DNA of 64,000 nucleotides, from positions 1,885 through 65,884 of the forward strand of contig CAZCCH010000005.1 in assembly GCA_964497315.1 (NCBI GenBank). Reading direction: 5' to 3'. Within the stretch, counting starts at the first letter, position 1. Every line of letters begins with the position of its first letter. The notes under the pieces were generated by a model, which saw nothing but the letters and a program-made list of their open reading frames with translations, was not told the origin of the DNA and ran no database searches. The DNA comes from an uncultured Planctomycetia bacterium. GTDB taxonomy: Bacteria; Omnitrophota; Gorgyraeia; Taenaricolales; CAZCCH01. Below, in pieces: positions 16,808 to 29,953 of this stretch. Position numbers and translations under genes: made by a program.

Positions 16808-19800
16808 TTATATATTTCGCTTAAATTCCTGAATGACTTTTAACTCTTGAAGTTTCTCTAATGTAGCCTCAAGTATAACATGGGCCTCTGTGACAAATGG
16901 CACAAGGAGTGCCTCTTTTGCTTCTTGAGCGGAGGTTGCTATATAACGTACGATTTGTGCACCTTGTGAGTAAAGCCACAACCCGGCATCTCTTGCTGAA
17001 TCAAATACCTTGATAGTTTCATCATCAGGTAGGGTTTCGTTAAGCTCGGCTATTAGGCCTCTGTAGCGCGTGTCTGAAGAAGGAACAACTGCAGCAACCA
17101 ACACACCTTCAGCAAAATGATCCCTAATACTAGCTACACCTTCAGCTAAAGAAGATGGACCGAGTATTATGCCTGTAGTTACATCAAGAGAGGTTTGACC
17201 GATTATTTCATCAGTTAAGGTTTCGGTTTCAGTGAAACGAGAGGGATCTATCTCAGCTGGAAGATAATAGTTAAATAATATCGGAAAGTAATTTGATTCC
17301 TCCCAATCATAAGTTGCGCTATGCAATGTGAAAGGAAACCTGAAGGGTTTCCCGGTATTCCGCAGGGCCATAAAGATGTTGTAGACATTATTTGGAATTA
17401 GGCTAAGCGAGGGTTCAGTTGACGATAACTTCAATAAGGCTTCATACATAGCCTCTCTTTTAAATTCCTCAGAAGCAGTTGTCCTATAATCAACCGGCTC
17501 CACGTTTGCATAAACAACTCCCCCAACCCTCAATGACTTTCTCAGGCGTTCTAATGTTTTGAATTTATCATGAAAGTATTGCGCTGTCTTACGGCAAACG
17601 ATAATTACATCAAAGCCCTCACTCAAATCATCCTGTAGTAGTTCATCTTCTTCTACATTTACTGGATAACAACGTTGTTTTATTTGTTCTAAATACCCTT
17701 CTATTTTACGCGGGGTTACATGAGATAGGCCTGAGACCATTAAACATTGTCTTACAGCCGTATCAAATTCAAAAGTAAGATCCGGTTCTTTATTGTACGA
17801 ATGGATTTCAACAGAATCTTCAAAGAGATCCATAATGCTTATTGCCGTAAGCCCTCCAGCGTCTCCTACCAATAAAACCCTTACAGGCCTTCCCAATTCT
17901 TCATGCTGCAACCTGATTTCATCGGATATGTTGTTACTGAATAACATGTCCATGTTACTAAAAGAATCTGCTAAATTATCATCTGTGCGATATGGATGTC
18001 TTCCACGCACTGGTAACAGGTTCAGGGCCAAAAAAGCATCTGCCAATGGTAATGATGCCTCCAATGCGGGTTGTTCTTTATAACGTGAAAAAACTAATTT
18101 GGCGTAATCTATAGTATCTAAAGAATTATCTACATTTCCATCAAAAGGTAGGCCAGTTAATTGGCCTATTTTCTCTAGCACAGTTAAAGCCCAAGCATAT
18201 CTATCGCTAGCGCTTAGTTTAACAATCTTGTTCCCACTCAAAAGGCTTCTGCTTAATGCTGAATCCTGAGCGCCGAGGAGTGGATTTTCCACAAAGCGGG
18301 CGGGGCCAAATCCAGTGCCCCTATCTTCTTGCCAGTAGGGATTTTTCACATTAATATACCGGCTGTTAACCTGTCTTATCTGGCCACTGCGCAACAACAT
18401 TTCAATTACATCCTTTGTTTCTGCTTCGCTATATGCCATACCTAGATTGTCCTCATTCAATAACTCTCCTGTGTCCATGGGGTGATCTGTGGATAGAAGA
18501 GATTGCCTTATGTAAAACAGCAAAGCAGTTTTTCTATTCCAGCTTTTAACTGGTCTGGATGCATCAAATTCAGCAAGTCCGACTTTCTCTGCGATAGCCC
18601 TGCCTGCGCGACTCATTGGCAAACATTGAAGCAAAGGTTGAGTTAAAGGTGTTTCGTGGGTCAAATACCCAGCTCCTATTGCAAAATCGATAGCTGCCTT
18701 ATATAGCTCCATTCCAACGCCGCGCAATTCAGGATTGTTTTTATCTCTGTTTTTCGGGGATATTTCAATAGTTTTCATTTTAATAGTACCTGTACCGTCA
18801 ATTATAATTGTGTAGGAGCCATCGACTATACTATCGTCATTTCTTGTGGCTACAATAATATATTTGCGTCGGTTAGCCTCTAAGGCATAATCGCATCCTT
18901 CCCGAATCCCAAGAAATACTTCTTTGTTGCTATAAAGCTCCTCTCGACTCCAACCAAACCTACCCTGCCTTATCTTTTCGAAATTTGGATCAAGACGTGT
19001 TAGTTGTTTTATAGTTATTTTTTCAGGCTGGTTCTCGCGTTGATTCAACACCAATACTTCACGAGGCTGTATTGCATCACCTTTTATTTCCGTAAAGCGA
19101 GAGGGAACAGCAGTCGAATTTTCAATTGCATCCAGGAAGGCTTCCAGGCCGGTAGGATGGATACCTATAATCTCAATAATTCCGGTCCCCTGATTGCTTA
19201 CATGTCTTTCGTTGCATAATACAAATGGTAATTCTGTGGGACTCCATTTGGATGCTATATCATCAGTCATTAACTCCCGGACAGTTACAATTCTGGCATT
19301 AGGAGGTAGGAAGACAGGTGCGATATTGCCTCCCAAGTTCACTATTTCTTTCAAGGGGTCAATGATAAACCGGCTGCCAGGTTTGGCGAATACCTCAATT
19401 AAATTAGAGACAGCTATATAAATTTTAACAAGGTTTTGTATGCGGGATATCAATTCATGCGATAACTCTGTAATTATACCTTTTGTTAAAAGCCCATTTT
19501 TAGCTAAATTATTCATCATGTGGGGTGAATAACGATGGACAAGGTAATCGGCTTTTGTACCGAAAACCTTTACTATGTCAACAAGACCTTTTCTGTTGAA
19601 CGCATTGCCTTCATGGACTTGCATAGATACATCAATGCCATGCTCTTTTTTATAGGACGAGGACGTCTTTTTAAATATCGGTTTTGCATTTTTTAAAACT
19701 AGCTCATCTGGATCTATTCCAACAACCTGAATTTGCCATTCTTTTGCAGCTTCAGCCCCAACAACCTCTTTCAGAATTTCAACAGAAGACCTTACAAGTT

Positions 19801-29953: not shown

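Follow-up and report, generated by a model that had tools for sequence, protein, structure and literature searches.

A recurrent RF[STAV]E motif marks module boundaries in a giant exported multi-enzyme protein of an Omnitrophota bacterium

A 64,000-nucleotide stretch of DNA from an uncultured Omnitrophota bacterium (contig CAZCCH010000005.1, positions 1,885 to 65,884; hereafter, the window) contains an uninterrupted open reading frame (ORF) of 4,381 amino acids (aa) at 16808..29953 on the minus strand. On the basis of the ORF list and Pfam matches, its product is described here as an exported multi-enzyme protein, the window giant. This protein contains 13 exact copies of a tetrapeptide core, RF[STAV]E, embedded in the consensus [P/S]-[S/A]-R-F-[S/A/T/V]-E. 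Homology limits and an AlphaFold model support the view that the motif marks the boundaries between modules, almost all of which carry it, and a fit of the motif to a processing-site model is supported as well. The motif is kept at an orthologous junction, and other giant proteins of the phylum were found to carry private motifs of their own at module boundaries.

From its composition, the window giant is expected to contain 0.19 copies of RF[STAV]E, and no more than 4 were obtained in any of 20,000 rounds of shuffling, which rules out chance or a composition artefact as the source of the 13 copies. RFSE, with 7 copies, is the most over-represented 4-mer of the protein, the runner-up having 3. 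The sequence CGCTTTNNNGAA occurs 7 times in the window, each time in frame within the giant ORF, and six-frame translation of the remaining ~51 kb yielded just two RF[STAV]E, a number expected by chance. Two kinds of known signal were considered and rejected. Signal peptidase I sites do not match, the -3/-1 rule being only partly met and an adjacent hydrophobic core being absent, and the PEXEL, RxLR, furin and Tat motifs disagree in their spacings.

All copies are encoded on the minus strand. The first lies at R49 (TRFSE, 29798..29812), 16 residues past the predicted signal-peptide cut, and is followed by R67 (SRFVE, 29744..29758), 18 residues ahead of the HAD domain, and by R366 (ARFAE, 28847..28861), which occupies the junction after the HAD module and is conserved in the ortholog described below. 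SRFSE is found three times in succession, at R1676 (24917..24931), at R1699 (24848..24862), 23 residues after the R1676 copy and forming a spacer doublet with it, and at R1853 (24386..24400), 11 residues before the start of the methyltransferase homology. The copy at R2078 (ARFSE, 23711..23725) stands 2 residues past the end of that homology, and the copy at R2388 (VRFSE, 22781..22795) 6 residues before the start of the HD-module homology. The remaining exact copies are at R2634 (ARFSE, 22043..22057), R3122 (SRFAE, 20579..20593), R3619 (SRFTE, 19088..19102), R3886 (ARFVE, 18287..18301) and R4239 (SRFTE, 17228..17242). Two variants accompany them: DHFAE at H4279 (17108..17122), of a type also present in the ortholog as SHFAE, and SSFAE at residue 3275 (20120..20134), in which Ser replaces Arg. 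The latter plausibly counts as a motif copy, since its flanks are those of the true copies (dSS-xFAE-I). A third, doubtful variant, ERFST at R2738 (21731..21745), lacks the Glu, adjoins a Pfam match to an additional ARM/HEAT unit, and is probably not a junction. Some copies form doublets 18-40 residues apart (R49/R67, R1676/R1699 and R4239/H4279).

The initial annotation of this DNA had listed 14 copies. All 14 coordinates translate as given and the repeated core stands; the list, however, included the variants at 3275 (SSFAE) and 2738 (RFST) and missed R3886 and H4279. Its statement that such a tetrapeptide should occur far less than once by chance agrees with the expectation and the shuffle maximum given above, and the 12-mer that it reported in three copies was found at R1853, R2078 and R2388 (CGCTTTTCAGAA, or TTCTGAAAAGCG on the plus strand).

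Where do the copies lie relative to the modules? No motif copy was found within any recognised domain (15 sites, with 34% of the protein covered; P about 0.002). An exhaustive HMMER search with residues 1670-2869 as the query recovered giants and also small proteins that share single modules with the window giant. The class I N-methyltransferase module (residues 1864-2075; 23729..24364, minus strand) is assigned by Pfam (1900-2027), by homologs, and by AlphaFold and Foldseek, the last of which matched the core to ordinary N-methyltransferases, RsmC, RsmD and HemK-like proteins. Its homology to eight other proteins begins near residue 1864 and ends at 2075, between R1853 and the AARFSE at 2078, and the stand-alone methyltransferase homologs stop 15-25 residues beyond the end of the shared homology. 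The HD phosphohydrolase module (residues 2394-2619; 22097..22774, minus strand; Pfam 2430-2552 and homology) is similarly delimited, its homology extending over about 2394-2619, between R2388 and R2634. Between these two modules lies a protein-kinase-like module (residues about 2128-2380; 22814..23572, minus strand; Pfam 2128-2277 and homology). Around the methyltransferase, kinase and HD modules, the copies lie within 6-18 residues of the module ends. In an AlphaFold model of residues 1836-2130, built with a 30-sequence alignment and covering two motif copies, the methyltransferase core was predicted with a predicted local distance difference test score (pLDDT) above 90. The RFSE at 1853 was modelled as coil four residues ahead of the first strand, and the RFSE at 2078 as coil four residues past the last strand, after which the pLDDT drops below 50. 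Thus, the three modules are delimited as the initial annotation had proposed when it described them as bracketed by the motif, and its check for motifs inside folded domains found none for the two modelled copies, both of which are coil.

The closest available relative (74% identity in EF-G) encodes a protein of 3,947 residues at this position (JGI contig Ga0118719_1000473); the comparison with this ortholog covers 1,779 of its residues. The HAD hydrolase module (residues 85-314 of the window giant; 29012..29701, minus strand; Pfam) is 42% identical between the two proteins, and the junction behind it reads GFLSS--RFAE in the ortholog and GFLSSAARFAE in the window giant. The check on orthologs that the initial annotation had suggested therefore found the motif kept at this junction despite the divergence of the adjacent module. 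The module that follows is sigma-70-like in the ortholog and a HEAT module in the window giant, and the motif is kept nonetheless. The ortholog also carries SRFAE 25 residues past its signal-peptide cut and SHFAE at residue 1159. A 310-residue module that the window giant lacks, containing two hydrophobic helices, separates its SRFAE at 57 from a decayed HRFSG at 367. Over the two orthologs, 18 copies can be compared: Phe and Glu are present in 18/18 and Arg in 15/18, the third position is Ser in 7, Ala in 7, Val in 2 and Thr in 2, and position -1 is Ser or Thr in 12 and otherwise Ala, Val or Asp. No RF[STAV]E was found in the other ORFs of at least 100 residues at the ortholog locus and a second related locus.

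Other relatives differ at this site. One with 71% EF-G identity has no giant there and instead encodes an ECF sigma factor, an anti-sigma factor and a cytoplasmic methyltransferase, and the giant is absent from the locus in two relatives at about 61% EF-G identity. Because of these absences, the giant gene is regarded as a variable insert. The variable site lies between the LptFG/phosphoribosyltransferase genes and the SpoVG...EF-G cluster (L085:1-5338, minus strand; L088:3271-6199, minus strand; L090; L091), and the ortholog giant at L085 carries other modules, namely sigma-70-like and nucleotidyltransferase.

Giants recovered via shared modules are from Omnitrophota wherever they are named. 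The sample is of about eight and biased, all having been recovered through two shared modules. A scan of genome contigs gave only two weak methyltransferase matches, and a metagenome scan with the HD-module alignment, whose patterns were too generic, brought back none of the giants of this family, its matches being ordinary HD-GYP proteins of 22-33% identity. A masked k-mer count was used to pick out private motifs. P0026 (5,328 aa) contains 11 copies of RSELR, with 0.014 expected. P0271 (6,387 aa), of which P0027 is a fragment, contains 14 copies of R[TA]SP (0.21 expected), and its shorter relative P0075 (1,366 aa) contains 4 (0.055 expected). ATAS[PL] occurs 4 times in P0274 (5,827 aa; 0.011 expected) and 3 times in P0007 (3,700 aa; 0.007 expected), and P[KE]AARP[AK]D 4 times in P0006 (1,866 aa). 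These motifs are mutually exclusive between proteins, and their spacing of 180-1,300 residues is that of enzyme domains. The methyltransferase of P0026 is flanked by two RSELR copies, and the methyltransferase and HAD modules of P0027 are each flanked by R[TA]SP copies. Comparison of P0027/P0271 with P0075 revealed two whole-module indels whose ends fall exactly on the motif. Whole modules of 240-310 residues are gained or lost between homologous giants with break points on motif copies (P0027 versus P0075; L085 residues 57-367), and this gain and loss is, as judged from the aligned proteins, cassette-like.

The codons of the copies bear on whether the peptide or the DNA has been retained (window motif codons; L092:6001-25164; L004:8001-23987). 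The 11 RSELR copies of P0026 are identical as protein, and every synonymous site varies among them, the codon variants at the five positions (Arg, Ser, Glu, Leu, Arg) numbering four, four, two, four and six. Considering that the peptide is invariant while synonymous sites vary freely, RSELR is, on codon evidence, selected at the peptide level. Third codon positions vary in the R[TA]SP copies as well, and the copies of the window giant use five Arg codons from both the CGN and AGR families and both Ser families (TCN and AGY). By analogy with RSELR, these data support peptide-level selection on RF[STAV]E. A signal at the DNA or RNA level was rejected, all copies being in frame with variable third positions.

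One reading of the repeats is that they are genetic scars left where modules were gained or lost by recombination or by copy-and-paste at a junction, the peptide itself having no function. Such scars would explain why whole-module indels end exactly on motif copies and why an identical 12-mer is present in three copies of the window giant. The choice of codon family is also uneven: Arg is CGN in 10/13 window copies, compared with 39% gene-wide (P = 0.006), and in 13/14 P0271 copies, compared with 35% gene-wide (P = 1e-5), and Ser is TCN in 14/14 P0271 copies and 11/11 P0026 copies. This CGN and TCN bias is consistent with a shared ancestry of the copies within a gene, although it may instead reflect rare codons favoured at module ends. 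The motif of P0271 forms a G+C-rich island (GAC CGC ACC TCG CCN) in a gene of 39% G+C. However, the amino acids are fixed while third codon positions vary freely, and the window giant mixes the codon families of both Arg and Ser. In addition, a neutral scar should decay as fast as its surroundings, whereas the motif persists at the orthologous junction beside a module diverged to 42% identity. Scars without function are therefore considered quite improbable.

The reading preferred here is that the motif copies are cleavage sites, an assignment made tentatively and with belief falling just short of an even balance. RF[STAV]E would then be punctuation at the junctions of independently folding enzyme modules, each copy being read and cut by a sequence-specific endopeptidase. 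The single chain would first be exported by the Sec pathway and cut afterwards, and the products would be separate enzymes together with a few short spacer peptides, as in a viral polyprotein, the closely spaced doublets releasing the short spacers. The private motifs of the other giants, and module gain and loss exactly at motif copies, are counted in favour of this reading as well. Homologs of the methyltransferase and HD modules that stand alone are small, and most have a signal peptide of their own, so that a single chain with a single signal peptide would need cutting to yield their equivalents. The suggestion of the initial annotation that the sites are linkers or cleavage sites thus gains from their boundary placement, their conservation in the ortholog and their fit to a processing model; that the chain is cut at all, where, and by which enzyme, we infer.

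A cut position can be proposed by analogy. In Mycoplasma hyopneumoniae, the P97/P102 surface proteins were shown by mass spectrometry to be cut in disordered regions at S/T-X-F↓X-D/E; several such sites occur per large exported protein, the fragments are functional, and the protease is unidentified (PMC3322551, PMC4772806). The two sites are alike in their five positions, with a small hydroxyl residue at the first, Phe at the third, an acid at the fifth and any residue in between, and the S/T-X-F-X-D/E pattern is fully matched by 12/18 copies, with its Phe and acid, here Glu, in all 18. By this analogy, the cut would fall after Phe. M. hyopneumoniae is, however, an unrelated wall-less Mollicute whose substrates are adhesins, not enzyme arrays, its site has no Arg at the second position, and cleavage has been seen there, whereas for the motif described here it is proposed.

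The same positions speak to phosphorylation, the initial annotation having offered the copies as basophilic-kinase phosphoacceptors of the embedded kinase, in which Arg stands at -2 relative to Ser; a basophilic kinase of the host would be another candidate enzyme. A kinase-like module is present in the giant, and R-F-S-E is the form of 7/13 exact copies. In contrast, the proposed acceptor is Ala or Val in 9/18 copies of the two orthologs, leaving no hydroxyl at the third position; the fixed residues are Phe and Glu, with Arg in 15/18 and Ser or Thr at -1 in 12/18; and the motifs of the other giants have no common Arg-to-Ser spacing. Because half of the copies have Ala or Val at the acceptor position, phosphorylation ranks lowest among the explanations and appears very improbable indeed. 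In the kinase-like module (22814-23572, minus strand) itself, HGD stands for HRD and DPG for DFG (FHGDLSLLRKNILL, IIDPGYG), and this module may be an atypical or inactive kinase.

Several observations weigh against cleavage. Searches of Pfam, NCBIfam and PDB sequences revealed no protease domain in the window giant, and Pfam searches of the 29 other ORFs found no protease gene in the window. Peptidase_C80 and clan-CD profiles of Pfam/NCBIfam did not match the whole giant or residues 1151-1700 at E up to 1, and regular-expression scans of the giant for HExxH, GxSGxP, GxCGxP and clan-CD patterns gave no match. The initial annotation had placed a caspase-like module in residues 1196-1675 (24929..26368, minus strand), a region that holds an H-G...C pattern and has no assignable domain. 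This region has no Pfam match at E up to 1, matches PDB sequences only weakly in polyubiquitin and thioredoxin and not in any protease, and gave a single-sequence AlphaFold model of pLDDT 36, which is unusable; the caspase-like assignment thus finds no support from Pfam, NCBIfam or PDB sequences. The linkers on the domain side are 2-11 residues long and can hinder protease access. Three of the eight larger giants (P0002, P0003 and P0010) have no short private motif, and ATASP, AARPAD and RTSP resemble ordinary linkers rich in Pro, Ala, Ser and Thr. Each motif may belong to one genome or to one protein only, a distinction that matters for an enzyme acting in trans. The non-random Arg and Ser codon families could mean that the copies spread by copying, not by selection. 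Finally, the case for cutting is built throughout on reading of the sequence.

Some further features touch on these searches. Residues 1271-1318 (26000-26143, minus strand) weakly resemble the start of ubiquitin (GGVTIYKTTLNGKKVTVYFDP); E is strong only against polyubiquitin, where it is inflated by the repeats, and is 0.02-0.9 against mono- and di-ubiquitin, and the resemblance is probably a chance match of a beta-hairpin. P0003 has longer Pro-rich linkers in place of a short motif. HExxH patterns were observed in giants without a short motif, at residue 490 of P0003 and at residues 407, 3541 and 3574 of P0010, the one at 407 coming after a hydrophobic stretch near the N-terminus; these patterns could be metalloprotease modules. 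The last module of P0271 (residues 6105-6346; L092 about 24313-25038) contains VAH...DLSIIKV...GICGAPVF. Pfam finds nothing in this module, and in a weak match (E 0.64) the Cys of its G-x-C-G-x-P aligns with the active-site Ser of trypsin. The arrangement weakly suggests a chymotrypsin-like triad pattern with a Cys nucleophile, as in 3C proteases, and serves as a lead only. The resemblances to trypsin and to the M. hyopneumoniae site are to be read as leads, not membership.

The lack of a protease match in the window giant by Pfam and PDB sequence search can be taken in two ways. If the copies are cleavage sites, the enzyme that cuts them may act in trans. Alternatively, each copy may be an uncut junction element, serving as a short cap or spacer that insulates adjacent modules while they fold, or as a docking peptide for a common partner, whether the HEAT array, a chaperone or a factor of export or translocation, so that the chain stays a tethered assembly. 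This reading accords with copies in coil, flush with domain ends and joined by very short linkers; HEAT arrays are common in these giants and have been discussed as scaffolds, and a co-evolving binding partner would also account for lineage-private motifs. Docking to HEAT repeats is nevertheless weakened by P0026, which has 11 perfect RSELR junctions yet no HEAT match. A passive spacer needs no invariant 5-mer kept through saturated synonymous change, and the doublets 18-40 residues apart have no obvious spacer role and resemble the spacer peptides of polyproteins. An uncut element is on these grounds rather unlikely, well short of improbable.

Among known systems, RNA-virus polyproteins with 3C-like or NIa-type proteases resemble the window giant in that a chain of many enzymes carries a short consensus at each boundary and the consensus depends on the lineage, and the related giant P0271 ends in the module with the chymotrypsin-like Cys signature. 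They differ in that the window giant is encoded by a chromosomal gene among housekeeping genes and is predicted to be exported by a signal peptide, and no embedded protease was matched in it by Pfam, PDB sequence and pattern searches. MARTX toxins are cleaved in their linkers after Leu and undergo type I secretion without an N-terminal signal peptide. Like them, the window giant is a very large exported bacterial protein with several enzymatic modules. Unlike them, it has no Peptidase_C80 and no glycine-rich repeat regions by Pfam, its motif has no conserved Leu, and its Sec-type signal peptide is conserved in the ortholog. The analogy to MARTX drawn in the initial annotation consequently falls on three counts: the C80 domain, the Leu site and the type I secretion layout. 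The gingipains of Porphyromonas gingivalis (RgpA, Kgp, HagA) are made as precursors whose domain borders are cut at Arg or Lys by a clan-CD cysteine protease that is itself part of the same precursor. An exported multi-domain precursor and the nearly invariant Arg of the window motif are shared features, whereas Peptidase_C25 and the C-terminal domain of type IX secretion are absent from the window giant by Pfam, and the invariant Phe and Glu of its motif have no counterpart.

Descent points elsewhere. In the giant Omnitrophota proteins termed 'Archaeovorins', cleavage has been suspected and the cleavage points were stated as unknown (West-Roberts et al. 2023, 10.1101/2023.11.21.568195), and a 2026 genome survey described 'multi-enzyme metabolic clusters' in Omnitrophota (10.64898/2026.06.07.730766). 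The window giant comes from the same phylum as such giants and shares their mix of a HEAT scaffold and enzymes of the methyltransferase, HAD, HD, kinase and GNAT types. HEAT repeats, methyltransferases, HAD and HD are some of the commonest parts of those proteins, and a class with a signal peptide as its only topological element exists among them. At 4.4 kaa the window giant is below the 10,000 aa threshold of the catalogue, and it carries neither a dockerin nor a peptidase domain of the C39 or S8 type. Based on the EF-G phylum assignment and the shared module families, it is placed with these proteins and is a small relative of the catalogued giants. In a text search, neither of the two papers (10.1101/2023.11.21.568195 and 10.64898/2026.06.07.730766) was found to describe junction motifs, linkers or cleavage points in the giants, the words cleavage, linker, junction and motif all being absent from the 2026 survey. 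Overall, viral polyproteins and the M. hyopneumoniae motif come closest in function, and the Omnitrophota giants in descent.

At its N-terminus, the window giant is judged by inspection to carry a Sec signal peptide at residues 1-32 (MQFKNYYIPKIISIMLLVTFSMSLIGPEFALA followed by SS; 29858..29953, minus strand), with two Lys, a hydrophobic core and an A-L-A site. The N-terminus is the sole Kyte-Doolittle segment above threshold in the protein, and the signal-peptide region is 49% identical to the N-terminus of the ortholog. The public gene call P0001 (4,367 aa) begins 14 codons later, within the hydrophobic core (window 29912-29953, minus strand); the longer start is preferred because the upstream residues are conserved in the ortholog (KIISI.LLVTF). 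Exported relatives share a pattern 10-25 residues past the signal peptide, L-[R/S/A]-P followed by 3-9 residues and Phe, examples being ETLRPDTTRKTRF in the window giant, SLRPPASRMNIF, ALRPMSAKF and RLSPRINMHINTF. Its carriers include stand-alone proteins and giants (P0005, P0008, P0009, P0010, P0012, P0013, P0017, P0025, P0026, P0044 and P0150), and in the window giant (29798-29953, minus strand) the first RFSE copy supplies this Phe. The pattern may be a sorting or maturation signal of exported Omnitrophota proteins. C-termini are often [A/S]-[A/S]-[A/I] (P0002, P0003, P0008, P0010, P0011, P0012, P0013, P0016, P0017, P0025, P0026, P0044 and P0150), for example SAA, AAA, VAA, IAA, SSA, ASA, SSI, AAI and QAI, with RNI in the window giant (16811-16822, minus strand). 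The residues right before Arg in the RFSE copies are small too (AA, SS, PS and PA), so that a cut before Arg would give similar C-termini.

Apart from several unassigned ones, the remaining modules, identified by Pfam and on the minus strand, are a HEAT repeat array at residues about 650-1080 (26714..28003), a MerR-like helix-turn-helix at residues 1774-1826 (24476..24634), and a module at residues 3886-4238 with a weak second methyltransferase signature (17240..18298). The same protein is present on the Joint Genome Institute (JGI) metagenome contig Ga0117906_1000286. The EF-G relatives with names, 57-60% identical, are nearly all Candidatus Omnitrophota, one being labelled Deltaproteobacteria. 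The neighbours of the giant gene are housekeeping genes, for LptF/LptG, KdsA, KdsB, EF-G, YebC, RuvABC, SecDF, RecJ, RecG, fatty-acid synthesis, NusA and IF-2. Three paralogous genes for AAA ATPases of the DUF4143/AAA_14 type occur in the 64 kb (3810-4934, 5130-6359 and 30340-31497, plus strand), one of them directly between the giant gene and the EF-G gene.

What do the boundary motifs mean for these giants? Processing or punctuation sites in multi-domain precursors are known already, and what is new is the Omnitrophota junction motifs, of which the literature examined holds no description. To our knowledge, Omnitrophota encode the longest proteins known in bacteria. It is possible, with doubt clearly the stronger, that the giants are true bacterial polyproteins with cleavage codes specific to a lineage or a protein (RF[S]E, RSELR, RTSP, ATASP, AARPAD) and with co-evolving site-specific proteases, in the manner of RNA viruses. 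If this is true, enzymes would be added and removed as cassettes between copies of the code, and a simple rule would be at hand for dividing proteins of up to 147,000 residues into functional units. The private boundary motifs are the first concrete candidates for cleavage points in Omnitrophota giants, and they make the question of cleavage testable by metaproteomes, by structure prediction module by module, and by comparing protease phylogeny with motif type. Such a result would show how a very small cell could export a whole array of enzymes behind one signal peptide and how giant genes grow one cassette at a time, and its wider reach would lie in motifs private to lineages across a phylum famed for giant proteins.

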